Shown here: positions 18,399-63,485 of the stretch, in pieces
Layout: every line of letters starts with the position of its first letter
How positions within the stretch are numbered: position 1 is the stretch's first letter
DNA from: Massalongia carnosa
Taxonomy: Eukaryota
Length of the DNA: 64,000 bases
Direction of reading: 5' to 3'
Assembly: GCA_965645245.1 (NCBI GenBank)
Contig: OZ287075.1
Span: 682,001-746,000, forward strand
Position numbers and translations under genes: made by a program
Notes under the pieces: generated by a model
Databases searched by the model: none
The model's input: the letters and a program-made list of their open reading frames with translations, nothing else
Told to the model about the DNA's origin: nothing

Positions 18399-18778
18399 GT
18401 GCGCGCTGTTCCAACCTTTCTCGATGCGGTTAGATCGAGTACGGCTCCGCCTCCGATCTTCGAAACCATAATTACCCGGTCCCTATTAGGTGTCTTCGTA
18501 TTAACTTAGGAAAAGGAGATGAATAGGAGACATCGAAGATCAAGGAAACAAAGGGGTAAGGAGGTGAGGAATAGATATAAAAGAAGGGGTCGAGTCTCGA
18601 AAGTTCTGGCGCCTTGTCCGACGTCTTGAATAGCCAATCTAGCCTAGCTGTAGCTATAGACTCAGTCAATTAGAAAGCTTGACCATCCAATCCAGTCCCT
18701 TGACATTTCGTCGGACCTATCCCTTAAAAAGTGCCTTCCATAACACTTTTCTCCATCCATTCCTTTTTCAACCCAGCC

Positions 18779-24312: not shown

Positions 24313-24654
24313 AATTGCATCGCAGGAGCTCTGCCTTTGAGAGGGGAGCTACTGTCATGAAACGGCTTCGAACCAAAAGGATCTCGGCCTTATCCCTAGT
24401 TGCCCCCTCTATCCTGTCCCTACCTACCGTACCGCAGGTTCATTGGAGCTACCGCGGGTTCATTGGACCTAACGCAGGTTCATTGGACCTAACGCAGGTT
24501 CATTGGAACTACCGCGGGTTCATTGGACCTACCGCGGGTTCATTGGACCTACCGCAGGTTCATTAGACCTACCACAGCTTCATTGGTCAGTGCGCGCTGT
24601 TCCAACCTTTCTCGATGCGGTTAGATCGAGTACGGCTCCGCCTCCGATCTTCGA

Positions 24655-31064: not shown

Positions 31065-32277
31065 TATCACGAAGCGAGATATTGAATCGATTTCTACCAT
31101 TGCGCCACCTGTCCTCCCGACCAAAAGGTACAATACTTAGTCCGCAGACCAAGCTCTATTCTACTATAACTGGGACTCCTGCTATATTCGCTGTAGGTCC
31201 TGCCGTCCGCACCACGCTTGGTCGAACCGTTACACTACCGCCCGTCTAGCTGCGGCTAGCCCCTAGCCGCTTCCAGTTATAGTTAGCCCCGAAGAATGGG
31301 CGCTTCTTAGCGTACGGCCCTCGCCGATCCGACTTAGAGAGTTTTCATCCAACGCTTTCCCGTTTCGTCCTAGCTTTAGTCCGTCGAAGCAAGGCGAAAA
31401 AGCGAGGAACTCAGGTCAGGAATCGAACTCACGACTAGTACACCGATTGATGACTAAGTATTCTGTGACGAAGCGAGATAGTGAATAGATTTCTACCATT
31501 GCGCCACCTGTCCTCCCGACCAAAAGGCACAATACTTAGTCCGCAGACCAAGCTCTATTCTACTATAACTGGGACTCCTGCTTTGTTCGCTGTAGGTCCT
31601 GCCATCCGCACCACGCTTGGTTGAACCGATACAATAACTGGGACTCCTGCTATATTCACTGTAGGTCCTGCCGTCCGCACCACGCTTGGTCGAACCGTTA
31701 CACTACCGCCCGTCTAGCTGCGGCTAGCCCCTAGCCGCTTCCAGTTATAGTTAGCCCTAAAGAATGGGCTCTTCTTAGCGTACGGCCCTAGCCGATCCGA
31801 CTTAGAGAGTTTTCATCCAACGCTTTCCCGTTTCGTCTAAGCTTCAGTCCGTCGACGCGAGGCGAAAAAGCGAGGAACTCAGGTAAGGAATCGAACTCAC
31901 GACTAGTACACCGATTGATGACTAAGTATTCTGTGACGAAGCGAGATAGTAAATAGATTTCTACAATTGTGCTACCTGTCCTTCCCGACCAAAAGACACA
32001 ATACTTGTCCGCAGACCAAGCTCTATTCTACTATAACTGGGACTCTCTGTGACGAAGCGAGATAGTGAATAGATTTCTACCATTGCGCCACCTGTCCTTC
32101 CCGACCAAAAGGCACAATACTTAGTCCGCAGACCAAGCTCTATTCTACTATAACTGGGACTCCTGCTTTGTTCGCTGTAGGTCCTGCCGTCCGCACCACG
32201 CTTGGTCGAACCGTTACACTCTCGCTATGTTCGCTATAGGTCCTGCCGTCCGTACCACGCATGGTCGAACCGTTACA
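31065..32277 (-). mobile_element. Tandem, self-nested array of the 571-bp TRIM: LTR-internal-LTR-partial LTR-internal-LTR, the last LTR interrupted by a solo LTR (32048-32218)
   Basis: Outer TSD AACTT and inner TSD CTCTC. LTRs 31065-31234 and 31464-31633, partial LTR 31634-31702, split LTR 31932-32047 + 32224-32277. Internals 31235-31463 and 31703-31931. Confidence 0.9.
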
Positions 32278-33410
32278 AACTTGACGAGTTATTTTCGTAT
32301 AAAGACCTTTCAATTTTGTATTATGCCTTGATTTAGTAGTTGATTTAATGGAATAATATTTGCAAATAGTCATGCAATGCGAATATTCTTCAAAAGATCT
32401 GTATAAATGAGTTTTAAAAATGATGTGATGATTAATTATAATATCTTTATTTATTTATCTTCGTCATTCAATACTTTTACAGTTAATTCGTGAAAACTGA
32501 AATTATTCATCAACAATAGAATCAATCGTTCATTTATATGATTATTTAATCAATGCAAATATTCTATTATGATGCTGTTGTTATTTCAAGCCTTGGGATT
32601 TTATCTTCAAACAGCATCGATGATCTTCAATATATAAATTTTGATATTTCGAAATCAATTTGATCTTTTGATCTTATCAATACATCAGATGTTAGATTTA
32701 TTTATTCATCAGGATTACATGTAAGACAGATAGTGATCCTAGCCCGTTTTAATTAGAATTCTATCGAATCGAAGCAGCTTACTGTAAAAAATACATTTTA
32801 TTCTGCTTCTATCGGCGTATCTTTCAGTATTAAGAGATCGATCGAATGACATTTTTCTATAACCTCCTATTTCATTTATGTTATAAACGTCTTTGATAGC
32901 ATATTAAGATGTTAATTTACGAAGATCAGAAATTATTTGTTGTAAATTTTCGCTTTGATCAGCCGAATCAATCTCGTCATTGTCACGATTCTACTCGGCA
33001 CGACCTCGGCACTCGGATGAATTCGGCACCGCCTAGGGCAAACCGTAGATGGAACGCGCAGGAACTTTCGATTTCGTTCCCGCACCTTCGATTTTGTTCC
33101 AGCAGTCACGAGAAGATTCCATCGCGACTATACCACATGGGTATTAGCGCAATAGTGGATATATAGGGGAAGGTTCGGGTTGTCAATTGTCTTTTTCCTT
33201 CCTCATCTTTATTGTATTCGTTTCTAGTGTCCCTATGACTTGTCTCTAGGTAGATCATAACATTACAATAAAGATCCAACTTACCCTGCTATCCTACGTG
33301 AGGGATATAAAAGAACTCACCCGAAGAACGAAACCAGAAGAACCCAGAACCCAAACGACGAACTGAACGAAACACGAAGAACCGAAGAAACCGAAGATCG
33401 CCACAGTGTT

Positions 33411-33498
33411 GGCACCAGAACCCGAACCCGAACCAGAACCCGAACCAGAAACCGAACCAGAAACCGAACCAGAAACCGTACCAGAACCGAACCAGAAC
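33411..33498. repeat. Minisatellite (AACCGAACCAGA-like 12-mers) in the chromovirus 3 leader
   Basis: Read directly from the sequence. Confidence 0.85.
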
Positions 33499-36400: not shown

Positions 36401-38587
36401 TGAATGGGAAATTCCGACCTGCCTACGGGAGGTATGTTCGTTCATTGGTTTTTGCAATTTCTATCGCCGGTTCATCAGAAGATTTCCCAAGATCGCCAAA
36501 CCGCTGAATGCGTTGACAAAGAAAGAACGAATATTCGAATGGACCCCCGCATGTGAAAAATCTTTTCGAACTCTACAGAAACGAATTGGAGAAGCCCCAA
36601 TCCTGATACATTTCGATCGGAACAAACAATGCTATCTAGAAACGGACTCATCAGATCATGTCAATGGCGGCGTGCTCTCCCAGATGGGTGACGACGGAGA
36701 GTTACACCCGGTGGCTTTCTTTTCGAAAAACATGAGCCCGGCCGAGTGTAATTACGAAATATACGACAAGGAACTGCTAGCGATAATTCGCTGCTTCGAG
36801 CAATGGAAACCCGAACTGGAAAGTACGGACTTGCCAGTGAAGATCTTCACCGATCACCGAAGTCTAGAATATTTCATGTCAACTAAGAAACTAACTAGAC
36901 GACAAGCTCGCTGGGCGGAGTTTCTCTCGGAGTTCAATTTTGTCATTACATATCGACCCGGAAAGAAGAATGAGAAAGCGGACGCCCTGACTCGAAGACC
37001 AAATGACAAACCCCGGGACGATGATGACGAAAGGCAGCAACACCAGCTGCAGACACTGTTACCCCCTGAAAGATTTGAACTTCAACCAATCGAAGAAGCA
37101 ACGGAACCGGAAGCAACGGAATCAGAAGAAACCCCCGACCAGGACCCACCGACCCTGGACGAACGAATAAAACAGGAAAACCTGGAAGATGAACTTTGCA
37201 CCAGAATCAGGAAAGCCATAGAAAGAACCGACACCACCGACGACTCGTTACCCGACATAAAGAATTGCATCGTGGAAAAGGACTGTTATATAAGCAAAAG
37301 CGCTTATGGGTCCCGAACAAGAAAGAAACGATCCTAGAAGTCGTTCGGATAATACACGACCAAATAGCAGTAGGACACCCCGGAATCGCCAGGACTAGTC
37401 AGATAGTCTCCCGAAATTACTATTGGCCAAACATGAACAAGGACATCCATCGCTATGTACGAAACTGTCATGTTTGCAGGCGCGCAAAAGCACCTCGGGA
37501 CAAGTACAATGGACTACTGAAGCCACTGCCCATCCCAGAGAGACCATGGAAGGATATCACCCTCGACTATGTGACCGGACTCCCGAAAAGCAAAGGAAAT
37601 GACGCTATCCTGATGGTAGTGGACCGGATGTCAAAGGAAAGACATTATATCCCGTGCACATGCAGCGGGGAAGGCACAATAGCAGAGGCCACAGCGAAAC
37701 TCCTTATCGACAATGTATGGCGCTATCATGGACTCCCGAACAGCATGCTATCCGATCGAGGACCGCAGTTCGTCTCAGCAGTATGGAAGGCCTGGTGCAA
37801 AATTCTCGGAATTACAGCAAAACTGTCAACAGCCTATCACCCAGAAACAGACGGACAAAGCGAAATCGCGAATCAGGAAATGGAGCGTCACCTCCGGAGT
37901 TTTGTGAACTACAGCCAGGATGACTGGACGGACCTGCTTCCAATGGCCGAGTTCGCTGCCAACAACGCACCCTCAGCCACTACAGGGCTTTCACCGTTCA
38001 TGGCCACCAAAGGGTATGAGCCAAGAAGGAGCTTCGATCCGACCGAGCGTTCCGCAGACTCCACTAGGGAAAGACTAGCCAACGAAAAGCCAGAGCCATT
38101 ACTGACGACATGAAAAAGGTATGGGACTTTGTTCAACAAAACATGAAGAAATCCCAAGAACGACAAGCAATAGCGGCAGACCGGCATCGAACTGAAGTCT
38201 CGTACAGCGAAGGGGACATGGTGTGGCTATCCACAAAGAACATCAAGACGGAGCGTACCGCCAAAAAGCTGGATCACAAAATGATTGGTCCCTACAGAGT
38301 CAAGAAACTAGTAGGTTCTTCCTGCCAATTGGAACTCCCACCGTCAATGAAAATCCATGATGTCTTCCACACCAGCCTACTTCGGAAGGCCTCCGACGAC
38401 CCACTTCCAGGCCAGATTAACGAACCACCACCGCCAGTAGTGGTTGAAGGGAACGAGGAATGGGAACTAGATGACATCCTGGATGCACGAAGACGCTACC
38501 GAAAGATTCAATTCAAGGTCAAATGGAAGGGAATAGACGAAGATTTGACATAATGATGCAGAAGGCTTCGAAAATGCAAATGAGATA

Positions 38588-41465
38588 ATCGTCGGCTCGC
38601 TTACCTCCGGGATCCGACTTGAAAAAATGTCGACCGCATTTTAGTCGGGGAAAGCGGTTGCATCCCGGAAAGCGGTTGCATCCCGGAAAGCGGGTGCATC
38701 CCGGAAAGCGGTTGCATCCCCTCAAATTCAAATTTCTTCATCTTTTTGATCATTGACCAACAACCACATTGATTAAAAATCAGTCGCCACCGTACATAGC
38801 TTGAAAATCATTTCTCCGACCCAACTGATTATCAATTCAAATCCTTTCCTTTCGAATCAATCCCCCGAACCAATCTCCCCTTTCGAATCATGGATAACGA
38901 CGCCTCCCTTGTCTCCACTCTCAACCCTATGGAAAGATTGAAAAAGGCGAAGGAATTTCTGACAAATCATCCCAAAGAAAGTAAAACGACTGCAGCTAGA
39001 ATCTACAATATCAACGTCAAAACTTTGACGTCTTCCATTCGTCGACCAGAAGGGAGGAAAATTGGAGGACAAAATCAGATACTGAGGGAGCATGAGGCAA
39101 GGTCAATTATTGGCTTTATTAAGTCCTTATTGATTCATGGAATTCTTCCTACACATCAGATGGGTTTTAAGGCTATTGTAAGTCTGCAAAAGGCCTATAC
39201 CCCCCTCGAGGTAGGCCCGTCAAGAAGATGGTTTCGGAGCTGGTGGAAATGTAACAAACTTCATAAAATAAAGACAAAACCACTAGCAATGATTCGTTAT
39301 AAAGCTGCCCAAGAATCAGATGTGATGGAATGGTTTGAAAGGTATAGAGAGAGAGTTGAAAATTCGAAAAAGTCGGAACATTTTGAACTTTGATAAAGCT
39401 GGTTTTCGGGTTGGATGCATGAGGGGTCAGGAAATCATTGTTCCTGAAGAAATCAAACAATTCTACGCCGTCAGCCCGGAAAATCGCAGATCTGCGACAG
39501 TTATTGAGACTAGCAATGCTGCCGGCGACTATCCCCCCCCTCTAATGATCATCGTACAGGGTCATGACATCATGGCCACATGGTTTTCGGAAGGTGTGCC
39601 CTCGAACAGTGGTTTTACATCTGATAAGATAGCAATTGAATATTTGAAGCATCTTATCAAACATACAAATGCAGGACCTGATGCGGAATGGCAATTATTG
39701 CTGATGGATAATCATGGCAGTCCTACAACCCCTGAATTTTCACTTTTGGCCAATGAGAATCGCATTCGACCCTTTCCCTTTATACCGTATTTAACTCATT
39801 GCATGCAACTATTGGATGTGGGCGTATTTCAGCCTTATAAGCATTGGCATTGCAAAGCCACTGAGGAAGTCGTTGCGTCGTTATTTGTCGAGTATTCTGT
39901 CTCAATTTATACAGGACTTGACCAAAATCAGAAATTATACATTCAAGACTTCTACGATTCGGCATGCATTTGAAAAGTCGGGAATGTGGCCGATTGGTCC
40001 AAAGGCATGCATTCGTCAGCTGAAAAATTTCAATCCCAATGATCCCAATGATTCATTAAACAGTCTGAATACGAATAATGAGCCCTCATTACCTCTACCC
40101 CCACCTCGTCAAATCCAACCGACAAAAGTAGCTGACATTGAGTATGGTTTGAGTCAATAGGGACCGAAAAGCAGAAAATCCATGCAATAGAGTGATCCCG
40201 CTCGGGCTGAGGGATGGGACTCATTTGTAGACAATATAAATGAAGTTGTTTCGAATACGATTATCGATGGCATGGAGCTGGAAATGCATCGAGAATCAAG
40301 AAGAAGTCAGTTAAATAAGAGACGAATGTCTCGTAAACGTCTGAGACCAGAAACCGGAAGATTGGGAATCACAGCGGAAGATGCAAAGTAGGCTAGAGCC
40401 ATCAGACTACAACAGGATCAAGAGGCTGAGGAGAAACGAGCGAATAATAGCTTCATGAAGCTATAGCGAATAGAAAGAGAAGAAATGCATGTCAAGGGAT
40501 TGGCTGCTCGAAAAACAGAAAGAGATCGAGTCAAACAGCTGAAAGAAATGCAGAAAATGCTCGGTCCTATTCCAATTGAGATGTATGAGAAGATTCCTGA
40601 CCCCGAGGCATTATTGAAGGCCACGAATGAGGTATGGATAGCTGAGGAAGCGAAGAAGGAAATTAGAAAGAATCCGCGTGACAATGTCAATGAGGAAGAT
40701 GTCACGTTTATCGTAGATAGCACTGGTCATGGAGATAATTCAATCCTTCCAGATCTTCTAGAAGGAGAAACATGGCTACGATATGATTTCGTATCTTTCG
40801 ATTCGGAAGAATCATTGAAAGAATTCGATTTAGAAGCATCTTTCCAACCAGGAGATGCGAATAATTGGTAGAATGCGGGGTATTGTTACAGCGCCGCCGT
40901 ATAAGGCTGATTATTACTAAGCCTGATGACTCAGCGGTGCTGAATACAGTCATACTATAGTCAGGTCAAGCGATGACTAATGGGACGGGACAGAAGGTCT
41001 GAGCCCACGGAGGAACGTCCGCCCTTAGTTGGCATAGTTGGCAGAGTACTGAAGAAACTCGACCTCGACTATTCCCACTGATCTATATAATATAGTGTTA
41101 GGCCCACCTAGATAGATCATCTTACAATTTAACTACTCCGTACTAAATTGTTCTACTCTTAACCCACTACACTACTCCTAGTCCAGAGTCACTCTCACAG
41201 GTATGCGGGGTATGCGGAGTAAGCGGAGAATCACGAAGGTCAGGGTGTCAGGGGGGTCAAGGCAAATGATTTTGACGACGGTGATGATGACGGCAATGAT
41301 TTTCAAGCTATCTACGGTAGCGACTGATTTTTAATCAATGTGGTTATTGGTTAATGATCAAAAAGATAAAGAAATTTGAATTTGAGGGGATGCAACCGCT
41401 TTCCCCGACTAAAATGCGGTCGACATTTTTACAAGTCGGATCCCGGAGGTAAGCGAGCCGACGAT
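38588..41465 (+). mobile_element. pogo/Fot1-like DNA transposon with long (about 170 bp) TIRs, inserted in the chromodomain of chromovirus 3; transposase pseudogene about 38890-40871
   Basis: TA TSD and TIR ATCGTCGGCTCGCTTACC...; motifs AARIYNINVKTL, NFDKAGF, LLMDNHGS, THCMQLLDVGVFQPYK; frameshifts and stops. Confidence 0.92.
40884..41199. mobile_element. Solo LTR, family B (316 bp)
   Basis: TGTTACA...TCACA termini, TSD GGTAT, internal TATATAA. Confidence 0.88.
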
Positions 41466-41951
41466 TAGTGGAAGAATTTTACAAACGAAACCCGAAGAAG
41501 CCACGATGAACGCCTGCACGCTAATCGAATTGATCATCCAATCTGTCACGTGATGAAACGGACGAACGAAAAAGGAACAGCTCGACAATAAAACCCCGGA
41601 GATAACGCGGATTTTATCGCGGTCAGGTGACTCGCGATCTAAAGCGGGGGGTAGTGTCACGATTCTACTCGGCACGACCTCGGCACTCGGATGAATTCGG
41701 CACCGCCTAGGGCAAACCGTAGATGGAACGCGCAGGAACTTTCGATTTAGTTCCCGCACCTTCGATTTTGTTCTAGCAGTCACGAGAAGATTCCATCGCG
41801 ACTATACCACATGGGTATTAGCGCAATAGTGGATATATAGGGGAAGGTTCGGGTTGTCAATTGTCTTTTTCCTTCCTTATCTTTATTGTATTCGTTTCTA
41901 GTGTCCCTATGACTTGCCTCTAGGTAGATCATAATAGTCATAATAAATATA

Positions 41952-44568
41952 GGGAACGGATAACAGGACACCACTTTGGTTTGATAAACACCACCTCCGG
42001 TTAGGTAAACACCGCTAGCCCAGGTAGGGTAGATTCCTCGGCCCCGCCCGCCTCTTCCCCTTCTAGGTCTAGCGGTTGAAACTTCCATATTCTACCTGCA
42101 CCTCATCCTTGCACTCATATTTCACATTTGATCTGCAGGCACCCTGCCGCCGCCACGTCGTCATGCCGCTTCGACCTCCCGAAGAAAGTCAATCCTTTGC
42201 CTGACTAGAGGACCTGTTGCTTAGAGTCAATGAGCATGCCGCCCCCGAAGGCTACGCCGTGGTGCTCCTTCGAACCAAGAAAACCAAGCTGGGAGTGAGA
42301 AATAAAGCTTGGTTAAAATGCGACCGAGGTGGAAAAGTCAGAGAACCGCAGGGTTAGGATCGTCGGCACACCAGCAGTCGACTAATTGCTTGTCCATTTG
42401 CCCTGACAGCTAAAATAGACGACGAGGTGTGGTTTTTGGAGGTGGTAAATGGGACATATAATCATCCGTCCAGTCTTGCTGGCTCTCATCCTGCCCTGAG
42501 AAAAATCGCTCTGACCGGTGTAAAGGATGACGTTACCAGACAGTTAACAGTACAAACGTCGGCGTCAAATGTTTGTCTAGTCTACGTGTTCCCGATGTGA
42601 ATGCAGATTTCAGTCCTTATGATCCCAATGCCGAGATAATTGTGAATCCGATGTTTAAACCTCGGGACATCTACAACTTAAAGGCGCAGATGAGACGTGA
42701 TGTCTTGGGACCATTGACTCCTATTCAGGCATTGATTCGTGAGTTTGATGAAAAGGATTGGGTGTACAACTTTCAACAAGACATTCATCAGCAGATTACG
42801 CATCTCTTCTTTATCAAGGGCAGTTCCCAAACTCTTCTGATAGATAATCATGAAGTTCTCATTATGGATTGCACGTACAAGACCAATCGATACAAAATGC
42901 CTCTTCTCGTCATCAGCGGACAAACCGCGCTACATACTACCTTTTATGTCGCCTTTTGCTTTCTGATCACGGAGACAGCAGTGGACTACATCTGGGCTTT
43001 ACAGCAATTGAAGGAGGTGTATTCTCGATTGGAATTTCCTGATTCGATTATTCTCGTGTCCGACATGGAGAAAGGATTAATATTGGCATCTTCTATAGTC
43101 TTTCCAAATATCAATCATTTGTTATGCATCTGGCACATCAATCAGAATGTGTTGACAAAGTGCAAAAAATCTTTCTACAATGAGGAATGGAAGATCTTTT
43201 TGTCAAATTGGAAATCTGTGATCTATGCAGCAACCAAGCCTCAATTTTGGAACCTATGGGAGCAGTTTTCTGCTACCTATATGACTTCTCATGAAGATTA
43301 TATTCGATATTTGAAGTCCACCTACATTGATAATTATCACGATCGCTTCGTGGCATGCTACACCAAAAAGGTGCTGCATTTTGAGACAACGGTAACGTCG
43401 CGAGAGGAAGGCGCACATGCAGTATTAAAACGTCAATTAGGATCATCGACCGGAGATTTGAAGCTGGTAGTTGACGGCATTAATCTGCTACTAACAAATC
43501 AGTATCCAGATCATCTGATTGCTTTTGAAGAAGCCGGAACACGTTTTCCACTTCATCTTCGCAAAGTTATTTTTCAGCAACTGAGAGCATTTATCAGTCC
43601 ATATGCCCAGAAAAAGATTCTACACCAATACGAGTTATTAACAGGATGACCGACTGTTATTCCAGCTTGTACCAACCTCTTCACTACCATCACCGGCTTG
43701 CCTTGTAGTCATCTGATTCAGCAACGATTATTCGAGAATGAAAGAAGCCTGAAATTGGAAGATGTGCACCCGCATTGGAAGTAGGTTATTGTCATCTGAT
43801 CGATAGTCAGCAATCAGCTACTAACAACATTTCAAGGTTGGAAAAGCGCGCCCCTCCGATTTCTTTGATTAATCCTCTTCTTCTAGTGAGGGAACCGGAG
43901 ATAGCCCGACCTCGTGGTCGCCCTCAGGGAGCGGAAAACAGACGAGCGGAGGCATTTGACAATTCCACTCATCGATTACCATCTCAATTCGAACGGGTTG
44001 AAATGGAAACAGCTGATGCAATAGCTCCGGAGGTGGAACGAGCTATTCATCGAGCCAATACTACACCAGGCAGGGTAGGACGTCGGGGGCGAGGGCGAGG
44101 GCGAGGACGAGGGGGAGGGAGAGGAGGGGGAGGGGGGATTGGTAAAAGAGCTGAGACAAACACAAGGACTGGCCGAGATATGGCTAGGGCTAGTCCAGGC
44201 AGAGCTGGTCGAGGAAGGGGAGACGGGATTGGCGGGGATGCAGCAGATAGAATTGGCGGGGATGCAGCGAATACGGCTCCAATCAACTGATTTGCATTAC
44301 TAAGCTTCAAATAAAGGGTGCGATTCATGAAGACAGTGCTAATCGACAAATCCAATGTCTAGTAATCGATGGTTGAAAGCTGAATTGACTTTTTTCTTGA
44401 GTTGTCAATGTTGGGATGTGGACTGCTAGACCTAAAAGGGGAAGAAGGCGGGCGGGGCCGAGGACTCTACCCTACCTGGGCTATCGGTGTTTACCTAACC
44501 GGAGGTGGTATTTATCTAACCGGATGTGGTGTTTATCTAACTAAAGTGGTGTCCTGTTATCCGTTCCC
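41952..44568 (+). mobile_element. Mutator-like element (MULE) with about 120-bp TIRs; transposase pseudogene about 42163-44290
   Basis: TIR GGGAACGGATAACAGGACACCACTTT, 8-bp TSD TAAATATA; motifs IMDCTYKTNRYKMPL, VSDMEKGL, LLCIWHINQN, TSREEGAHAVLK; RGG-rich C-terminus. Confidence 0.93.
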
Positions 44569-44763
44569 TAAATATATTGTTTGAGTTTTCGGCGTCTTTT
44601 AAATCGATTCAGTCAGTTATTGCTTTAATTTGAAGTCAAAATAAATCTTCATACTAAGGCAATTTGTTTTACAATTCGATGATATTGATTCGTAAAACTT
44701 CAGCATTAATAAAAAGATTGATTTATTTATATTGTTGCTTTTATTCGAATAAAGCATCTTTTA

Positions 44764-45782
44764 TGTAATACGGATAGCGCTAGAAGGATACGTGATCGCC
44801 TACGGCGTTTGCGGGATTAACCAGCATGAGCCATGCCGTAGTACTTAGTCGCACAGCCGTCGAGGTTGACACGACGCTACCTTGCCACACAACTCCGAAT
44901 CCTACGTTCTAGACTGCTTACAGATCAAACACCTGTCGAGGCCGTGGTGGTAGATTGCCATAGAGTAAGGCGAACTCCTGTGGAGAACCCTTGAACTCTA
45001 AATAGGATCTACTGGCCTACTCGGAGCTACTCGATCTCTTGATGGATCAAGAGTTGTAGCAGGAGGCACAGCTAGCTGGACGCAGCTTGAGCTCGGCCTC
45101 CCCGGTGTAAACTTCAGCTTCAACCTTTGTTGCTACGTTGGTAGTGATGTCGGCTAAATCAACCTACATAACCTTATTGTCTAGACCTTGTGTCTAGGGG
45201 CAGGTCCGCAGTGTAGATAGAGATTCAGTCGGAGGTAACCTTCCATCGCTACGTTGGTAGTGGTGACGGCAAAATGAAGCTACATAGCCTCGGCGTCTAG
45301 ACTTTATTTTTAGAGGCAGGCTAGCAATGTAGTGAGGGATCTAGCCGGAGGTAGAAGTGTTCTGCCTTGCAAGGGAAGGTCTAGAAGGCTGCTCGAGGCT
45401 GACTAGATGATCCAGTGAACGCCGAGTTCGTAGATGGATCCTGAGGGATGGTTAGATGTAAGGCGATAAGGTCAGAAGTGGGTTGCAAGGCTCCTAAGGT
45501 TCCAAGGCTCCCAAGGCTATAGGCTTGGGGTGAGTAGGATAAATACCAGAACGAATCCTGTAGTATTCGTTAGCAATTAGTTTTTATTCTATGAACAACC
45601 TACGTTTGGGTCTCGGACGAGATCTCTTGGTCTAAGCACTTCCACATCCATTAGTTCTTTAGATTACATAAACTCTCGGAGACCAGCACGTAGTAGCTAT
45701 CTTCCCCCTCTCACGCTGAACATTTCCCCTTTCGAGATCAGCGTCGCTCGTGATTAGCTTACTGGTCTCGTAGCCCATTACA
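44764..45782. mobile_element. Solo LTR, family A, second copy (1019 bp)
   Basis: TGTAAT...ATTACA termini, TSD TTTTA, aligns with 16578-17552. Confidence 0.92.
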
Positions 45783-45830
45783 TTTTAACATAAGTCATTT
45801 AAGAGTAATCTTTCGTTTGATTGAGCTCGC

Positions 45831-46401
45831 TGTGACGAAGCGAGATAGTAAATAGATTTCTACCATTGCGCCACCTGTCCTTCCCGACCAAAAGGCACAA
45901 TACTTAATCCGCAGACCAAGCTCTATTCTACTATAACTGGGACTCTTGCTATGTTCGCTGTAGGTCCTGCCGTCCGCACCACGCTTGGTCGAACCGTTAC
46001 ACTACCGCCCGTCTAGCTGCGGCTAGCCCCTAGCCGCTTCCAGTTATAGTTAGCTCCGAAGAATGGGCTCTTCTTAGCGTACGGCCCTCGCCGATCCGAC
46101 TTAGAGAGTTTTCATCCAACGCTTTCCCGTTTCGTCCTAGCTTCAGTCCGTCGAAGCAAGACGAAAAAGCGAGGAACTCAGGTCAGGAATCGAACTCACG
46201 ACTAGTACACCGATTGATGACTAAGTATTCTGTGACGAAGCGAGATAGTGAATAGATTTCTACCATTGCGCCATCTGTCCTTCCCAACCAAAAGGCACAA
46301 TACTTAGTCCGCAGACCAAGCTCTATTCTACTATAAATGGGACTCTTGCTATATTCGCTGTAGGTCCTGCCGTCCGCACCACGCTTGGTCGAACCGTTAC
46401 A
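45831..46401 (-). mobile_element. Complete 571-bp TRIM (171-bp LTRs 45831-46001 and 46231-46401; 229-bp non-coding internal region)
   Basis: TG..CA termini and TSD CTCGC/CTCGT. On the minus strand the PBS AATACTTAGTC follows the 5' LTR and purine-rich AGACGGGCGGTAG precedes the 3' LTR. No ORF. Confidence 0.93.
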
Positions 46402-46763
46402 CTCGTCTTATTTTTATCATTTTGATAAGCATATTTGAAAATAAGACTCTCGCTGATAGATGTACTCTCAGGCACTTAATTATACTCTCTTTTATATCAC
46501 ACGCGACAGTTATTCTAAGTCACTTTATTTGTTGAATCATCATTGTATCTGTCCCGAAGAGCTTTTCGCTAAAAATATTCGTGATTTCACGATAAGTTTT
46601 TTTTCGAGAAGGAGAAATTGACAAAGATATGAAGGCATGTCATTCTCGAGACATATTTATAGCAGAATCGTAGCAAATATACGACAGCTTTATCACTACG
46701 CTATAACAAACGTTATCAAAAAGTTGAAAATATTTTTCGTTATATCGTTATGAAGGGTTTTTC

Positions 46764-49171
46764 ACCCAGATGGGCGCCAGACGAGGAAGATCAACCGAAT
46801 CTGCACTAGAATTGTTGACTGAACAAATTCATACAGTATGGGGCCAAGGCACAGACAAAGTAGCCACATTATTGAGCATGGACGTAGCAGGAGCCTATGA
46901 TATAGTGACACATCGAAGACTGATTCATAATCTTCGCAAAAGGAAAATCCCGAAATAGGTCACTGACTGTGAAACGGGGAGACCTTCTCCCAGCAGGCAT
47001 TCACTACTGGAAGATGGGATCCACAGGGGCTACAAAACGTGATAGTCACAATAGAGGTACAAAATTGGTAGGGTCGGGTCAAAGGGTAGACTAAATGTTA
47101 CCCTTTTGAAGTGCTTGATCATTGATCTATATAGGATAGGACAATCCACAACCTAAGCTCTTTTTCTATACCTTGCCCATACTACCTGGTATTTTCGGAC
47201 TCCGAAATACTTCGGATACCGAAACACTCGGGTAGATAAGACTAGGCAGGCGAGCTAGGGGAGGTGAGGCGAGGCGAGGGGATACTTCGTGTACTACGAA
47301 AATACCTCTATAATAAGTTAAGTCCCCACACTATGCCTAACTGGGTTAGGCGGGACCTTATTGTCTTGGTGGTTGTTTTGGCTGTACATATCCCACATAG
47401 CCACATAGGCCAGTCTTACGTTCAACGAACGCATACTAGGCCTACCCTATTACAGACTGGGTGAACAGTTTTCTGAATGAAAGAAGCACTACCCTGGCGA
47501 TTCACAGCCGAGTCACGGGCATATTCGATGTAAAAACCGGAATCCCACAAGGCTCCCCCATTTCTCCTATTCTTTATCTGTTCTACAATGCAGACCAACT
47601 AGACATATGTGAAAGACCAGGCAGCAACACGAGTACTCTAGGCTTCGTAGATGACATCAATGTGCTAGTATACGGAAAAGGCACCGAAGAAAATTGCAAG
47701 ACGCTAGAAGTAATTCACAAAAAATGTAAAAAATGGGCAAGTCAACATGGTTCAGTCTTCGCTCCGAAGAAATACGAATTTATATATCTGTCAAGAAATC
47801 CGAAGAAACTTAACATGTTCACTGTTATTCAAATAGAAAATAACATCATAAAACCAAAGACAGACATCAGAATTCTAGGACTTCAAATCGATTCAAAATT
47901 GAAATTGGGTGCTCATACAAGGAAAATCAAGGAAAAAATGACAAAACAATCCAGGGCATTGACAAAAATATCCACCTCCACATGGGGCGCTACTCTTCTA
48001 AAGGCACACTAGGTTTACACCGCCGTAGTCAGGCCGGCCATGACGTACTGCTCCACCATTTAGCACATGCCAAAAGAAATTCAAAAATCAAACGTCATCT
48101 CAAACAAACTGGCTGTCATATAAAACAAATATCTAAGAAACATAGCTGGAGCCTTCAAAGCAACGCCTATAGCTGTACTAGAAGCAGAGACATTTATAGC
48201 CTCAATTGAGTTATATTTAGATCAACTACAGGCCAAGACCAGACAATGCCTGTGTCGAAATGGTAAAAAGAGTTTCATCACAAATACATGAAACAAAATA
48301 GCCAATAAACTTCGAGGTCGGGCAGAACGCAAGAGGGCCCCAGTCATCACTCCAGGGACGCTGAAATACGCCTGGGCTAAGAGAATTACATCGGAGGCAC
48401 ATAACCCTCCAACACCGACACCAAATCTACCATGGGCCGAATCCCCCCCGAATCTCACCCGAGAAATAGAGGAGGCACGCGCCGCTCATAACAAAATAAC
48501 TGCTTAAATAAAAAACGACACACAGTTGCATGGCAGGCCTCGTGTAGATCATATCAGGAACGCACACCCGTTCCCACTCGGCACAATCAGGTTCACTCTC
48601 CAAAAAACGCATCAAATTGCACGAAACTCTAGCCAAAGGGGAGAGCGCGCTAGCAATTCAGATACGCTAAGAAAAGATAGGCCTAGCCGCCTTCCTATAT
48701 AGACACCGAGTCCCAGACGTCTCGTCTCCAAACTGCTCATGTGGCTAGCATAAACAGACTGCAAAACATGTGACCATGTTTTGCAAACTCAACGACAACA
48801 GAAAAACTCTGCTAAATACGATAGGTACAAACAACTATCGATTAATCACTGGGTCATCTAAAGCAATAAAATTAGTCACAAAGTAGCTAATAAAGAAAGG
48901 TTTGCTGTCATAATTTTCGCTGACAGCACAGCATCCATACTGCTAACAGTAGGCATGCTTTGTTTCATTTTTCATACTTGTCTTAGGTCAAAGGTTTTTT
49001 CATGGAGCACACGGCTGGGACCCGGAGGGTCCTCGGCCGGACACAGGATTGGATTCTTTTTCTTCCTCAAAAGGTTTTCCATGTACTATAAAACTAGATA
49101 GACTCGCCCCGCATGGGCCGGCCTTCGGCCGGTACCACATCGGAATAAGAATTATTATCATCATCATCATC
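46764..49171 (+). mobile_element. 5'-truncated Tad1-like LINE (RT pseudogene) with (ATC)n tail
   Basis: 14-bp TSD ATGAAGGGTTTTTC (46750-63, 49172-85); motifs LSMDVAGAYD, GIPQGSPISPILYLFY, GFVDDI and a C-terminal Cys/His motif; many stops. Confidence 0.92.
46970..47454. mobile_element. Solo LTR, family C (485 bp), inserted in the LINE RT
   Basis: TGAAACGGGG...CCCTATTACA termini and TSD GACTG; removing it restores VTDWVNSFL. Confidence 0.85.
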
Positions 49172-51182
49172 ATGAAGGGTTTTTCGTTATAACGAGGTTT
49201 TTATCATGAAACTATAAAAAACCCGAGAAAGAACTTCGTTATGCTGAGGTTTTCGTTATAAGGAACTTTTCTATTGCGGGGTTCGACTGTATTACCAGCT
49301 CGAAGGCCTCGTCGAACTCGATCATATCATTTTTTTCGATCTTCACTGATATAAAGACGAACTCTACTTTCTGCTTTAGAGGAACCTTCGCGATACTGAT
49401 TTCCACCCTTTAAAGCTATAACCTGTTGAATATAACAAGGTATGTACTCAAACCAGTGCTGAATACGTTTCTTAGTCAATGTCTTTTTCTAGCACCGTGT
49501 CCAGACCTTCTCTATAATAATTCTATTCGTCGGACAGCCCCTTCGGGTAGTTTGTCGCTTTATCTAGGCCCAACAAGTCTTGATTATATTGAGATCAGGA
49601 GATTTTCCGGGCCAAATCAAGCGTATAACTCCTGCATTTATTAATATCTAATCCTGATGCTTACAAGCATAACGTAATTGCTACTTATTCGGGCAAGCCA
49701 CCTACTCGGGCCGCGCCATTCAAATCTAATGGGTATCTAATTCTTTTCTATTATTATTTATCACCACCATCCAATCATATTTAAATAAATTCAAAATTAG
49801 ATATATCAGATTCTAATACTCGTTTAGAATTAGCTATTAAATATTTGCGAGAAAAACCTAATGTATCATAACGAGAAATCGCCCGTATTTATAATATTCC
49901 TCGATCGACGCCTCAAGCTCGTTTACGGGATAGACAACCTGCAAAATCCTATTATCAAACTATACAAAGTGTTGAATATTCAACTCCTACCAGTACAGTG
50001 AACACCTACCAGTTCAATGAACATAGCACCTACGACTGCCCAAGATGGACAGAGCACCTACAGAAACCGTAGATGCCGTATTAGGCTTAGCCTAGAGATT
50101 AGATAAGATCAGCTCAGATAATCTTATCACCTCGCTTAGCAGAGGGTGACCAGTTATGGGACAAAGACTGCTGAACAGCACTCTTCATCCTTAACATCAC
50201 GGTCATACATACCATTTTTATCATAGCCATATAGCCATAGTCATATACCTATTTCAACAGGTTATGAGCCCGGAAGGGCGCTATCGATTCAGTCACGAAT
50301 CGAATTGCTCATCCGCAGCACTACAGTGCATAATAGCTAAGCATCATCGTTTACAAAAAAAAAACCCCTTAGATGCAATACTAAAAAATTTCTTTGCGTA
50401 CTTAGAATTTACCTCACCACGATTATCTATCGTGAACTACGCACACGCATCATTACACGAAATTCAAATGCACAATACCTACAAAGACCTTGGACACCAG
50501 ACAGGCCGTTAGCCCAAAGGCCCAAGGCAATCTCAACAAACCTTTGAATAGCGTGTATGCCTGGAGATTAGAAGGAACGATGAACCTCTAAAGACCAAAG
50601 GATACCACTATGTCAACTAGGTTCAGGGAGCAGGAAGAGATACAGACCCATCTTGGAAAAGTAGTCCTTCCTTGCCAAAAGAGATTTCTTGAACGCCACA
50701 GAAGGGAAAACATGGGAGTAGTGAAAGTGGAAGAACCCTGTTTCATTTAACAGGCCCTGTGCCTGTTAAATGAAAACGGTATATCCCTGTTCAGACTCTG
50801 TTTTTCCTTGTCGTCAAGTGATAGATAAAAGTTCACTAGGATACAAGCCGATGATAGGTCAAAGTTCATCAGGTTACAATCAAGCCACCAAGTGATAGGT
50901 AAAAGTTCACTAGGATACAAGCCGATGATAGATCAAAGTTCATCAGACTACAATCAAGCCACCAAGTGTTAGACAAATTTTCACTAGGATATGGGCTTGG
51001 AGCAAATATTGCTAGGACAATGAGGTGCATGATGATAAGTAAAAGGAATGCTGCTTGTTTTTCTCATAAGGAGAAGTCAACACATCATCCTCCTACTTTA
51101 TCCCTCACACATTGTATTATAGAACTCTAAGATATAAAAATCAAGTTCTTCATTCACAAGCTTTCTACTCTTCATTCACAAG

Positions 51183-52124
51183 ATGTCTAGTTCTACTCAA
51201 GACGTGATTCAGTTGTTAGAAAAAGCGGAAGATTATCCACAATGGGTTGTGCACACCGAGGGCATTCTGAAGCAAAAGAATTGTATCTTTGCTATTCAAG
51301 ATAACATTGCCGCTATCACGTATCAGACAGTCAAGCGCAAGTACTTGGAGATGGGCTTCACCGAGGCGAATCTCAAGGATGAACAAATCTTTACCAAAGT
51401 CGGAGCTGACGTTGAAAAGCAGAGCCTTCTCATGCTCAAGGCCGAAGGAATCATTCAAATGCGTGTCGCCCCACAGCATCACACTCTGATATCAACCCGC
51501 ACAGCTGGCGATATGTGGAGAATCTTGAAGATCAAGTTTCAGGACATCGCACCCATGAGCATCACCGACATTCTCTACAACATGAACTCCAAGAAGATGA
51601 CGAATTATGAGAATGTCACTCAATACTGCGCTGAGTATGAAAAAGCATTGAACTCCATAAAAGGCATGATAGATGAGGACTCGGAACTGAACGCAAAGGG
51701 AGCAGAACAAGTCCTTCAAGGATACTTGTTACGAAACGTCATCGAGGACTATCTACCCCTTATAGCTCAACTTCGTCGGGATTGGATTACTGGCAGATCG
51801 AACCTCACGACTGCATGCAGATCAATCACCGCTTACTCCATCAGCAGGCCAGAGAGGAAGGCACTCCACATCAATGCTTCCAGAACTGGCGTTGCCGGAA
51901 ACAACGGAAAAGCACCACCAGGAACTTGCACCTTTCCAGAATGTGTCCGAAGAGGGCGGACTTCCCACTTACTAGAGAAATGCTTTCAGAAATACCCAAA
52001 TCTGAGACGTCAAACATACCCCTTAGAGTCTATGAAGACAAGAGGAACAAGGACCTCTGATTCCAAAACGGAAACGGTCCCGACATCCACCGTATCAACA
52101 GACCTACCAACTGTGAGCAGTTGA
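51183..52124 (+). CDS. gag: Gag of the Copia element
   Basis: 313-aa ORF with variant zinc knuckle CTFPECVRRGRTSHLLEKC; ends in TGA, in frame with pol. Confidence 0.85.
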   Translation: MSSSTQDVIQLLEKAEDYPQWVVHTEGILKQKNCIFAIQDNIAAITYQTVKRKYLEMGFTEANLKDEQIFTKVGADVEKQSLLMLKAEGIIQMRVAPQHHTLISTRTAGDMWRILKIKFQDIAPMSITDILYNMNSKKMTNYENVTQYCAEYEKALNSIKGMIDEDSELNAKGAEQVLQGYLLRNVIEDYLPLIAQLRRDWITGRSNLTTACRSITAYSISRPERKALHINASRTGVAGNNGKAPPGTCTFPECVRRGRTSHLLEKCFQKYPNLRRQTYPLESMKTRGTRTSDSKTETVPTSTVSTDLPTVSS

Positions 52125-55100
52125 CTCACAAAGGTCATGACCGTTAGACTACAGAAGATCATGACTATGACAAGTCTCAGTAGAAGTTCTTGGCTATTGG
52201 ACAGCGCGGCAGATATGCATGTATGCAATCACAGACCCTCTTTCACTGACTACATAGACTATCCTACAGGACTAGCAGGATCAACGTCCACAGGCACATC
52301 GCCAGGAAGAGGGACTATTCAAAAAACTTTGACATCAGAGGACGGATCACCTTGTTCAGTTTTGACCCTCAACAATGTACTTTACATTCCTCAATGCCCT
52401 GTGAGCCTCGTCAGCCTTGGACTACTCAATCAGCATTCTATTTTCTATGATAACTCGAACTGGAGACTGTTCCTTGAACCTACCAAGAAAATCATATGTT
52501 ATGTACCCAGAGTTAACAGCAACTTCATGCTACAAACCATAGACACTCTAGATATGAGGATGCATCTGAACAAGATTGACGAGAACACTTATCAAGAAGA
52601 AAACGTCGCTATTCATCAAACTTTCATAAAATTCAAGCTCACAACTTGGCATGCACGTCTTGGTCATCTCAACATACCGACATGCCGAAAGTACCTGAAA
52701 ACACTGAACATAACGTTTGTTGACGATATCAATCAGGGTTGGTTCTGTCATGCTTGCGAGATGGGGAAAGCCACCAAGATATACAATCGAACTCCACAAG
52801 AGAAAGCCACGGAGATCTTCCAGAAAATAAACTCCGACATGGTAGGACCAATCAAACCAGTAGGGCTCCTTGAAGAGCTCTACTTCTTCACCTTCACCTG
52901 TGACGCCAGCAGATACACTCATGTTTATACGGGACACAAAAAAAGTGAATGGTTTGATCACTTGTTGACATACAACAACATGGCTCAAAACAAATCTGGG
53001 AAAGCAAAGCCAATAAGCATCTTTCGCACTGACTTCGGCACAGAACTACGCAGTCACAAGTCAGATAACTGGTTCCTTCAACAAGGTATAATATATGAAC
53101 CTTCCGCCACATATTCTCAAGAAGAAAACGGTGTCGCAGAACGAATGGGTAGGACCATCATGGACATGACAAGATGCACAGTTATTGGTGGAGGAATTCC
53201 AGATTATCTGTGGACAGAAGTCGTTTTAGCCATGGTTCACACCAAAAACGTTAGACCAACAAACGCCTTGGGAGGTAAAACCCCCTATGAAGTCTTTGAG
53301 AACAAACCACCCAAGCTAGATCACTTGAGAGTACTTGGATCCACCGTTTATGCATTGATTCATGAACAAGAGCGAAAGGGAATGAACAGCAAGTCTGCAA
53401 AATTCGCCCCAAGAGCTCAGAAAGGAATCTTGTGTGGATATGACGGAAACACTATCTATCGCGTCTTCCTGGAAAAAGACTACAAGGTCATTCGAGTCAA
53501 AGATCTACGAATTCATGAAGATGCTATAGACAAGAATGAGACTGATCTGCCTACATACGATTCCGTGATGATTGTTGAAGAAGATGAGAATCTGCCTAAA
53601 GCTATTTCCAACTCTTCCAGAACTCAACCACGGTTAAATCCCGAAGTCACTGAAGCTTCAAAACGAGGAAGAGGTAGGCCCAGGAAACATGCTCATGTAG
53701 CACAAGTACTGGCCCTTCTGTCTAATGAAGCACTGACTGAACCAGAGCATATCTTCACAATGGTAGACAAAGATGAAGAAGATCCACTCATACTTCTAGC
53801 CAAGGAAATGGAAAAAGAGGGAGCAGCAAACCTAAACGATCTTGATGCGTTCGTTCAATCAGACATAGCTGAGCCACAGACATATCATCAAGCAATGAAC
53901 TCCAGCTATTCAAACGAATGGAGCCTGGCAATGAACGAAGAGCACAAGAGCCTCATGGAAAACAACACCTGGGATACTGTACCTATCGAAACCATGAAAC
54001 TTGGACACATAGCATTAAGCGGTAAGTGGGTATATAAGCTAAAGAAAGATGTGAATGGAAACATCACCCGCTTCAAAGCTAGATGGGTCGTCAAGGGATA
54101 TCTACAACAATACGGAGTAGACTTCGATCAAACCTTCGCTTCTGTGGTCAAGCCGATGGCCTTTCGTCTGATATTCGCATTAGCTGCTTATCATGACTTG
54201 GATATCGAACAACTCGATATAGTGACAGCTTTCCTCAATGGCTTCATTGATCAACTCATCTATGTTCACATGCCAAAAGGTTATGACGTACCCGGCATGA
54301 TATGTAAACTGAACAAGGCCCTGTATGGTCTAAAACAGTCTCCTCGCCTCTGGTATGAACGACTTTCTACCTTTCTGCTGCAAAAATTAGGACTCGAGAA
54401 GCTTCACGCAGACCACAGCATCTTCGCCACACCTCAAGGCATAAAAGGTCCCATCGTTACTTCTTTCGTTGATGATCTGAACATCATAGGTCCAAAGGGC
54501 TCCCAAATGATCACCGAAGTCAAGAGACAACTCAAGCTAGCATTCAAAATGGTAGACATGGGACCGATCAGTTACTACTTAGGTCTCAAGGTCGAACGAG
54601 ATCGAGTCAAAAGGATCATCAAGCTATCTCAACCAACCTATATTGAGAAAGTGCTAGAAAGATTTCATATGCAAAATGCAAAAACAGCCAATACTCCCAT
54701 GCGAGAAGAATGTCTTTTCACCAATGAATCCCAAGCCTCCGACAAAGACATTAGACAATATTAAACCATTGTTGGATCCATCATGTTCGCGATGATAGAA
54801 ACAAGACCCGACATTGCTTTTGCAACATCTGCAGTCAGTCGACATTCGAAAAATCCAAGCAGGACACACATGGAAGCGGCCAAACATATTCTCAGGTATC
54901 TTAGCGCTACCAAGGACAGAGGTATCACCTTCGGCGGAGGAGACCTGACAATACAAGGGTATTCCGATTCCGACTGGGCCGGAGACAAGGAAGAACGCAA
55001 GTCAACGTCTGGTTATGTCTTCATGTTAAACAATGGACCCATAAGCTGGTGCTCCAAAAGACAAACAACCGTCGCATTATCATCAACTGAAGCAGAGTAT

Positions 55101-55502
55101 ATGGCACTTACCTTAGCAGCAAAGGAGGCCACATGGCTACGTTTACTGATGACCGAACTTGGATTAATGACTATAGACAACGAATCCCCAACGGTAAATG
55201 TGTTAAGAGGAGAAGGCACCATCGCATTAAAAGGCGACAATCAAAGCGCCATAGCCCTTGCCAACAATCCTGTCTTACACGCTAGGACTAAGCACATAGA
55301 CATTCAGCATCACTTCATCCGGAACGAGGTCCTCGAGGGACGAATCGACCTCACCTATGTCTCAACAGAAGACATGATAGCAGACGGACTGACAAAACCT
55401 CTCACTCATGTTAAGTTCTTCTCGTTTGTCAGACAATTACACATGGATAACAATTCAACCACGGTTGAACCTACAGGCAAAACAAGTACTGGCAGGACTT
55501 GA
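52125..55502 (+). pseudogene. pol: Pol of the Copia element (protease-integrase-RT-RNaseH) with one nonsense codon at 54762-54764
   Basis: WLLDSAA, WHARLGH...CHAC, FRTDFGTE, ENGVAER, FKARWVVKG, LYGLKQSPRLW, FVDDL, YSDSDWAG, KHIDIQHHF. TAA replaces the conserved Q in Y*TIVGS. Confidence 0.93.
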
Positions 55503-55955
55503 GGGGGGGTGTTGAATATTCAACTCCTACCAGTACAGTGAACACCTACCAGTTCAATGAACATAGCACCTACGACTGCCCAAGATGGACAGAGCACCTA
55601 CAGAAACCGTAGATGCCGTATTAGGCTTAGCCTAGAGATTAGATAAGATCAGCTCAGATAATCTTATCACCTCGCTTAGCAGAGGGTGACCAGTTATGGG
55701 ACAAAGACTGCTGAACAGCACTCTTCATCCTTAACATCACGGTCATACATACCATTTTTATCATAGCCATATAGCCATAGTCATATACCTATTTCAACAC
55801 AAAGACTATCCGTACACGAGAAACAAGCACTGATTATATAGATTGAAAGAATGACTGCATAGGGCTGGCCCCCTCGAATTATACATCTTAAAAGCATTGC
55901 TAAGAGTTTAATAGAGACCAAAGGGGATCGAAAAGCGCTTAGATACTATTGGTAT

Positions 55956-58777: not shown

Positions 58778-58808
<31 letters not shown>

Positions 58809-58879
58809 TTACTGCTCAGTTCGCCATCTATCATCACGTACCACTACCTTCTATTAGTACGCACGACTTCCCTTCTTTG
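55956..58879 (+). mobile_element. Non-autonomous LTR element (about 345-bp direct repeats 55956-56300 and 58534-58879) carrying one decayed non-Gag/Pol ORF
   Basis: Direct repeats, PBS-like TGGCGACCACGG at 56302 and purine-rich AGGGTGTGAGG before the second repeat. It interrupts the Fot1-like transposase; no clean TSD. Confidence 0.75.
56459..58372 (+). pseudogene. About 637-codon Ser/Pro/Ala-rich ORF with an N-terminal hydrophobic helix and three in-frame stops
   Basis: ORFs 56459-56872 and 57074-58219 share a frame; the only stops are at 56870 (TAG), 57011 (TAA) and 58217 (TAG) before TGA at 58370. Confidence 0.6.
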
Positions 58880-63314: not shown

Positions 63315-63485
63315 TGTAACGGTTCGACCAAGCGTGGTGCGGACGGCAGGACCTATAGCGAACATAGCAGGAGTCCCAGTTATAGTAGAATAGAGCTTAG
63401 TCTGCGGACTAAGTATTGTGCCTTTTGCTCGGGAAGGACAGGTGGCGCAATGGTAGAAATCTATTCACTATCTCGCTTCGTCACA
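63315..63485 (+). mobile_element. Solo LTR of the TRIM family (171 bp), opposite orientation to the other copies
   Basis: TGTAACG...CGTCACA termini, TSD CAGTG/CAGTA, inside the LINE endonuclease region. Confidence 0.92.

Follow-up and report, generated by a model that had tools for sequence, protein, structure and literature searches.

Do the A-box-like and B-box-like strings that lie on either side of the boundary between a long terminal repeat (LTR) and the internal region of a miniature retrotransposon make up a working tRNA-type promoter for RNA polymerase III (Pol III), or are they a relic or a coincidence in an element that replicates by another route? The locus that raises this question lies on the minus strand at positions 45831..46401 of a 64,000-nucleotide stretch of Massalongia carnosa DNA (assembly GCA_965645245.1, contig OZ287075.1, positions 682,001 to 746,000 of the forward strand), which was analysed at its whole length and is here called the window; its coordinates are used throughout. 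The locus is a 571-bp non-coding, non-autonomous LTR retrotransposon, or TRIM (terminal-repeat retrotransposon in miniature), of a lichen-forming ascomycete. An initial annotation had described the two strings and read them as a captured or mimicked tRNA-type promoter that only a full element, and not a solo LTR, puts together; its description of the sequence has stood, and its promoter interpretation has found only partial support. Our preferred reading, which we hold with fair but far from full confidence, is that this is a TRIM transcribed by RNA polymerase II (Pol II) that primes its own reverse transcription by the route of the Tf1 and Tj1 elements, and that its box pair is probably a relic or a coincidence.

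Anatomy of the element and its family

Read on the minus strand, the element has the size and the parts of a TRIM: it is shorter than 1 kb, its terminal direct repeats are 96.5% alike, and its internal domain has a primer-binding site (PBS) at its start, a polypurine tract (PPT) at its end and no coding capacity (the positions of these features are given in Table 1). Target duplications of 5 bp match at four of five places around this copy, at five of five around a second, compound locus of the same family and at five of five around a solo LTR nested within that locus, and a further solo LTR of the family is present in the window. A reading with the plus strand as sense was tried and rejected, since no purine tract then precedes the 3' LTR and the relation between self-primer and PBS (below) fails.

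The compound locus is made up, in order, of an LTR (LTR-a) that is split by the nested solo LTR, an internal region, a 69-nt LTR stump, an LTR, an internal region and a final LTR. The nested solo LTR (32048-32218) stands after position 59 of LTR-a and has the target-site duplication GAGAG/GAGAG, and a second TRIM element was inserted after position 69 of the next LTR. Both of these insertion points (32219/32218 and 31634/31633, minus strand) coincide with the TATA-like stretch of the LTR or lie just upstream of it, and they may mark a favoured target or a place that is prone to recombination. The locus contributes two LTR/internal junctions, 31932/31931 and 31464/31463, and in an alignment of the three such junctions from the window copies the mean column identity is 91%. 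Since the LTR opens with TGTAACGGTTCGACC, a second T-loop-like GGTTCGA occurs at LTR positions 7-13 (46395-46387, and the same place in all of the LTRs; minus strand), and this string does not match the full B-box pattern.

The annotation had assigned the TRIM to a fungus, and rightly so. A host gene at 13564-16359 encodes an M28 peptidase with a transferrin-receptor-like domain whose best named relatives are from lichen-forming Lecanoromycetes, the closest of them (77% identity) from a Peltigerales species; because of these relatives we take the host to be a lichen-forming Lecanoromycete, that is, an ascomycete.

A self-priming layout

The PBS of this TRIM, AATACTTAGTC, is the exact reverse complement over 11 nt of GACTAAGTATT, a part of the LTR itself; a match of that length was given by none of 2000 shuffled LTRs. 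This is the arrangement of Tf1-type elements, whose PBS stands beside the 5' LTR and is complementary to sequence within that LTR, and in which the 5' end of the RNA folds onto the PBS and acts as the primer. For Tf1 such self-priming has been demonstrated, and it has been proposed for Tj1 and for several gypsy elements of ascomycetes (PMC4600332; PMC6934838). The textbook TRIM PBS, unlike the self-complementary one found here, is complementary to a tRNA (PMC6934838). This PBS was absent from the initial annotation; it gives the stretch between the two boxes an ordinary job and points to the Tf1-type group. When the RNA from primer to PBS was folded, it formed a closed panhandle with z = -3.64 and -3.00 in two TRIM copies.

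The same layout is found in neighbouring elements. The window holds three Ty3/gypsy chromoviruses (X, Y and Z) whose pol domains include Tf2-1-like SH3 and chromo domains, and each of them has a primer/PBS complement that lies 59-90 nt from the LTR end (lengths and shuffle counts are in Table 1); the primer-to-PBS RNA of X, Y and Z also folds into a closed panhandle, with z = -2.64, -2.43 and -3.20, respectively. Chromoviruses X and Y have common primer flanks (cctt...tcttg), and their primers and PBSs differ from one another in a matched manner. The style of PPT and LTR end is also common to these elements, for example GGTAG/TGT in both the TRIM and Z, and Y has a 5-bp duplication.

On the preferred reading, transcription by Pol II would begin near 46310, which is about 26 nt downstream of the U3 TATA-like stretch, and would extend into the 3' LTR. 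The first ~11 nt of this RNA (46309..46299) would fold back onto the 11-nt PBS (46229..46219), the RNase H of a helper chromovirus would cut the duplex, and the 3' end so freed would prime minus-strand DNA; the PPT (46014..46002) would prime the plus strand, and integration would create the 5-bp duplication. The proteins would be supplied in trans by a self-priming Ty3/gypsy chromovirus, and the A/B-box pair would be dispensable for replication.

Pol III starts some 10-20 nt upstream of an A box. In this TRIM such a start would fall downstream of the self-primer, and the polymerase would meet the T5 run after ~120 nt. The resulting RNA would not be a template for replication because it would be without the self-primer, the PPT and the 3' R region; each LTR moreover has a T4 run on the sense strand upstream of its A box, and that in the 3' LTR would leave a Pol III RNA with no terminal redundancy. 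Any role of Pol III for the TRIM would have to be accessory, and because a Pol III RNA would be useless for replication, the box pair is most likely the relic of a tRNA or short interspersed element (SINE) segment, or a coincidence, rather than a working promoter.

The three chromoviruses have some features of their own. The LTRs of X are at 18158-18705 and at 24349-24648 + 30080-30326, since Y is nested in its 3' LTR with the duplication TTCGA, and the PBSs of both are of the self-priming type. About eight tandem 20-nt units (accgcaggttcattggacct-like) are present at 18240-18390 (plus strand) in the U3 of the X LTR, and a masked or withheld run of 200 N lies inside Y at 25799-25998. In Z the LTRs are ~99% alike, a distance of 59 nt separates the PBS complement from the LTR end, and the open reading frames (ORFs) are broken into several frames.

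Table 1. Positions of the TRIM, its parts, its relatives and the three chromoviruses in the window
Feature	Position	Strand	Description
Complete TRIM copy (LTR + internal + LTR)	45831..46401	-	171 + 229 + 171 = 571 bp; sequence reading
Target duplication of the TRIM	46406..46402 and 45830..45826		ACGAG and GCGAG; 5 bp, 4/5 identical
5' LTR	46231..46401	-	171 nt; TGTAACGG at start, CGTCACA at end; TG..CA ends
TATA-like stretch, U3	46328..46336	-	~26 nt upstream of the self-primer; putative Pol II (or TBP-dependent) promoter element
Self-primer GACTAAGTATT	46299..46309	-	LTR positions 93-103; putative 5' end of genomic RNA
A-box-like string TGGCGCAATGG	46263..46273	-	In U5, within the loop closed by the primer/PBS duplex
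Internal region	46002..46230	-	229 nt, non-coding
PBS AATACTTAGTC	46219..46229	-	Begins 1 nt past the LTR end; complement of the self-primer
B-box-like string GAGTTCGATTCC	46186..46197	-	Within the leader, 21 nt past the PBS
T5 run	46164..46168	-	17 nt past the B-box string; the sole sense-strand T5 of the TRIM
PPT AGACGGGCGGTAG	46002..46014	-	Adjoins the 3' LTR
3' LTR	45831..46001	-	171 nt
Compound TRIM-family locus	31065..32277	-	Perfect duplication AAGTT/AAGTT at flanks
Solo LTR of the TRIM family	63315..63485	+	A-box string intact; flanks CAGTG and CAGTA
Chromovirus X (with Y)	18158-30326	+	Primer/PBS complement 8 nt; 77/2000 shuffles
Chromovirus Y	24655-30079		Primer/PBS complement 9 nt; 19/2000 shuffles
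Chromovirus Z	32981-41934	+	Primer/PBS complement 12 nt; 0/2000 shuffles

The box pair and its likeness to a tRNA gene

The A-box, B-box and T5 strings named in the annotation are all present on the minus strand where it had placed them. The A-box string fits TRGCNNARYGG exactly, its start lies 76 nt from that of the B-box string, and the LTR/internal junction (46231/46230) falls between the two boxes, so that both are carried by a full element only, as had been argued. The boxes are indeed kept at two of the three LTR/internal junctions; they are intact at 31464/31463, and at 31932/31931 the A box has decayed to TAGCACAATTG. The pairing of CAGG, ahead of the A box, with CCTG, past the T-arm position, that had been noted at tRNA-like offsets 4-7 and 66-69 was borne out in the copy at 31506; the copy at 46273 has CAGA. 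Within the window all six matches to TRGCNNARYGG are in LTRs of the TRIM family (five on the minus strand and one in the plus-strand solo LTR), where 2.76 would be expected by chance, and three of the 12 matches to GTTCRANNCC are in the family's three internal regions.

How often would such a pair arise by chance? A first-order Markov model of the window, from which the TRIM family had been masked, was used to generate 24 Mb of sequence; this contained 1011 A-box strings, 1658 B-box strings and three A-to-B pairs at a distance of 40-110 nt, or 0.008 pairs per 64 kb, which is a few per fungal genome. Neither a T4 or T5 run within 45 nt nor the 4-bp complement accompanied any of these three Markov pairs. 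It is unlikely that the full combination arose by chance in one single element, a statement to be read with the caveat that the pair was spotted by eye in a very large scan and that the extra features were picked post hoc; the repeated copies are not independent, because they are a single event multiplied by transposition. A T5 run is a usable Pol III terminator in some fungi.

Searches for tRNAs and other RNA families gave little. ARAGORN at its default settings found no tRNA in the whole window, and Rfam at the gathering score found no match in it; a Rfam scan by E-value of the 1.4-kb compound locus (31000-32400) gave no tRNA or 5S match with E ≤ 10, and a single chance microRNA match with E = 5. 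The 126-nt tRNA-like stretch folds no better than its shuffles (z = +0.39). With thresholds lowered to 90%, ARAGORN made one call in the window, at 48567-48677, with a poor T loop, and at 80% it called the TRIM junction, with the primer/PBS duplex in the role of "anticodon stem" and an "intron" made of 66 nt of U5, together with 110 places in the window, which puts this call at the noise level. Neither a tRNA gene nor a pseudogene is recognized at the TRIM junction by a cloverleaf from a tRNA finder or a covariance model, and these negative results bear out the view of the initial annotation that the D and T stems are broken and that this is not a tRNA. The resemblance to a tRNA is confined to 14 + 12 nt, the 4-bp complement and the T run.

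Variation in public sequence runs

Words of the TRIM are present in 14 rows of public sequence runs, from 12 studies and several organisms, and three of these rows hold half or more of the words. None of the 18 runs listed is recorded as RNA, a fact from which no conclusion is drawn. Contigs of four runs, X1, X4, X6 and X7, were aligned to 46002-46401 (3589, 92, 1 and 5 pieces, respectively), with no cover over 46140-46230 in X6. A different letter appears in one run or more at 26 of the 400 places, and none of these is among the 23 box positions, where ~1.5 would be expected; the probability of finding none is ~0.2, so the comparison has no power. Similarly, 13 of the 400 places have a minor share of at least 5% in X1, again with none in the boxes (0.75 expected, P of none ~0.5). 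The boxes lie within the longer invariant runs 46162-46229 and 46251-46273. Conservation of the boxes above that of their flanks, which the annotation would lead one to look for, was not seen in the contigs of these four runs, in a test that is without power because the TRIM family is too young.

The T5 run is nearly fixed in X1, where a loss of 1 nt makes up 0.25% of the depth; in X7 the sole contig across the site reads T4 for T5, and another contig of that run reads TAGCGC. The one decayed LTR in the window has three changes in the 11 nt of its A box, compared with ~5% for that copy in its entirety. The LTR has 3-5 times the summed word depth of the internal part, a ratio that, depth not being a copy number, fits the presence of many solo LTRs. 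In the X6 contig, the LTR and the final 138 nt of the internal part are followed by unlike sequence from 46139/46140 on; this junction suggests a larger relative and sets the PBS, the B box and T5 apart as a 91-nt 5' module that is separable.

Single contigs of X4 leave the LTR within 1-2 nt of the nested-insertion positions (46342 and 46333). A 22-mer of the PBS had no match in metagenome contigs; a 22-mer of the LTR had one there (L001), which was rejected as an unrelated stretch with no other similarity to the LTR. Two further TRIM strings had no match each in genome contigs.

Weighing the explanations

Several points weigh against the Pol II-transcribed, self-priming TRIM that we prefer. 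The primer/PBS matches of chromoviruses X and Y are short and individually only moderately unlikely. The interior of the panhandle folds differently in the two TRIM copies, and for this reason no defined U5 hairpin explains the A-box string. The helper was not found: a blastn search of the window with the TRIM (word size 7) returned copies of the family and chance matches of 29 nt or less, and no sequence common to the TRIM and X, Y or Z, so that the helper would be located elsewhere. The box pair, together with the 4-bp acceptor-like complement and the T5, is more like a tRNA gene than chance readily yields, and its 76-nt spacing is within the tolerance of TFIIIC, as in intron-containing tRNA genes.

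Could the U5 A box and the leader B box then be a working split type-2 Pol III promoter, complete in full elements only, whose output is a ~120-nt RNA that covers the LTR end and the PBS and ends at the T5, or else a TFIIIC chromatin boundary? We think this unlikely. The exact A-box and near-consensus B-box strings are in the right order on one strand, the family consensus has the acceptor-like complement at tRNA offsets, the T5, nearly fixed in X1, is placed 17 nt past the B-box string, the pair is rare in random sequence (above), and TRIMs with Pol III promoters do exist in Cassandra and, by inference, in Helenus and Ajax (PMC10886601); yet neither ARAGORN nor Rfam calls a tRNA here, there is no fold signal, the invariance of the boxes in the sequence runs is unremarkable given the ~1.5 variable places expected and their position in longer invariant runs, the decayed LTR has lost 3 of 11 A-box positions, X7 contigs have T4 for T5 and TAGCGC, and a product that is no replication template brings the TRIM no evident selective advantage. 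Were such a promoter to work, which we regard as improbable, the TRIM would be a new architecture among TRIMs with Pol III promoters, found in Ascomycota, and its RNA or the bound TFIIIC could modulate its own priming, silencing or insertion targeting. An explanation that overlaps with both of these readings, and to which we give some but minor weight, is that a tRNA or SINE segment resembling that of Helenus was once whole and that a new self-complementary PBS, arising in its anticodon part, shifted the U5 boundary, which could happen because the position of the PBS sets the LTR end in self-priming elements; the LTR would have kept the A-box half and the leader the B-box half, and the promoter may or may not work. 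This would account for the tRNA-like features of the box pair, complement and T run and for the finding that the self-primer/PBS pair lies exactly between the two tRNA-like halves, and an origin of TRIMs with such promoters through insertion of a SINE into a TRIM has been proposed by Kojima for the TRIMp3 families (PMC10886601). It has to contend with a tRNA-like portion of only 14 + 12 nt and 4 bp with nothing between, and no intermediate forms were seen.

Two further explanations are much less probable. The boxes might be a landing pad that recruits TFIIIC/TFIIIB, with the integrase of the helper targeting this complex, so that copies attract copies just upstream of themselves; we consider this very improbable. 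The Ty3 integrase targets the TFIIIC/TFIIIB complex, as does that of Tj1. The two nested insertions are 10 nt apart in U3 (positions 59 and 69), have the orientation of the host LTR and precede the A box by 60-70 nt, and for Tj1, a self-priming relative of Tf1, insertion is upstream of Pol III genes and always in one orientation (PMC4600332), but these are just two events, Tj1 inserts 1-10 bp and not 50-60 bp upstream of the start site (PMC4600332), the other three insertions in the window are beside no tRNA gene and no other A-B pair, and the A box of one of the two host LTRs is now decayed. There is also little to commend the idea that the PBS binds a host tRNA fragment, such as an anticodon arm, and that its match to the LTR is a structural stem rather than a primer: fungal Helenus and Copia elements use PBSs that match anticodon loops (PMC10886601), but here an exact 11-nt complement lies within the element itself (0/2000 shuffles), the three window chromoviruses have a like layout with different sequences, including the matched changes of X and Y, and the PBS does not start with TGG.

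Other features of the window

A Copia-type element occupies 49969-55799 (plus strand), with gag and pol at 51138-54764; the first 291 bases are 100% identical between its LTRs, and because of this identical stretch it is probably a very recent insertion. Between the two copies of a direct repeat of ~620 bp (16556-17175 and 44742-45353, plus strand; 92-96% alike, at a distance of 28.2 kb) lie the chromoviruses, the compound TRIM locus and a gene for a MULE transposase (42531-43649). Direct repeats of ~346 bp at 55958-56303 and 58536-58882 (plus strand, 2.58 kb apart) surround an ORF of 401 aa (57014-58219) for which there was no Pfam match, and this repeat pair (55958-58882) may be another non-autonomous LTR element.

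Comparison with known systems

By its anatomy the element is a TRIM, and by its priming layout it would be grouped with the Tf1-type elements. Like elements of the Tf1/Tj1 type, it has a PBS directly past the 5' LTR that is complementary to an LTR stretch taken as the 5' end of the RNA, and it is also like them in having no tRNA-type PBS, a 5-bp duplication and an ascomycete host. The Tf1/Tj1-type elements, however, are autonomous and have gag-pol, whereas this TRIM is 571 bp long and non-coding, and its self-priming is read from its layout.

Neither a self-priming TRIM nor one whose Pol III promoter is divided by an LTR boundary turned up in literature searches, and a search of a preprint on transposable elements of Peltigerales (10.64898/2026.02.14.705750) yielded nothing relevant on TRIMs. 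The statement in the initial annotation that no fungal equivalent had been described has nonetheless to be withdrawn, since Helenus TRIMs with tRNA-like promoters in their LTRs are known from Pucciniales and Agaricomycetes (PMC10886601). Families of Helenus are reported from Pucciniales, some Agaricomycetes, six animal phyla and Selaginella (Kojima 2024, PMC10886601) and are grouped with Cassandra and Ajax as "TRIMp3" (PMC10886601). The fungal ones have PBSs complementary to tRNA anticodon loops and depend, apparently, on Copia elements; the author of that report saw no complementarity between the tRNA-like part of Helenus and its PBS, and regards the use of Pol III as unproven (PMC10886601). 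The present TRIM resembles Helenus in being a short non-autonomous LTR element of fungi with A and B boxes like those of tRNA genes, 5-bp duplications, solo LTRs and tandem arrays. The whole tRNA-like part of Helenus, as described there, is in the LTR, whereas here the A box is in the LTR and the B box is internal; and the fungal Helenus elements of that account, which are from Basidiomycota only, have a tRNA-complementary PBS and a Copia helper, whereas here the PBS is self-complementary, the likely helper is one of the gypsy chromoviruses, and an ascomycete is the host. Unlike in Helenus, the T5 in the leader would block a full-length Pol III transcript, and the T4 runs of the LTRs likewise argue against one. 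Because boxes, PBS, helper and host all differ, we do not file this TRIM as Helenus.

Two other kinds of element also invite comparison. Cassandra is, like the present element, a TRIM with the strings of an internal Pol III promoter, in that case in plants, and it makes Pol III transcripts (PMC10886601); its promoter is 5S-derived and lies wholly in the LTR, whereas no 5S match was found here with Rfam (the window, and 31000-32400 at E ≤ 10). The tRNA-derived SINEs (SINE2) have A-box and B-box strings followed by a T run, as here, but they are without LTRs, PBS and PPT and are moved by non-LTR elements, whereas the boxes of the TRIM stand at a distance of 76 nt, and the LTR end and the PBS fall within that interval. 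A box pair of this kind can mislead the annotation of tRNAs or SINEs.

If the preferred reading is correct, its value is descriptive: this would be a widely held TRIM family of lichen fungi with self-priming of the Tf1 type, and self-priming would be extended to a miniature non-autonomous element. If, on the other hand, the box pair were to work, it would be a third route by which LTR elements come to have Pol III signals, after Cassandra and Helenus, and the first in which the integrity of the promoter separates full copies from solo LTRs, and control of retroelements by Pol III and TFIIIC would become testable in ascomycetes.

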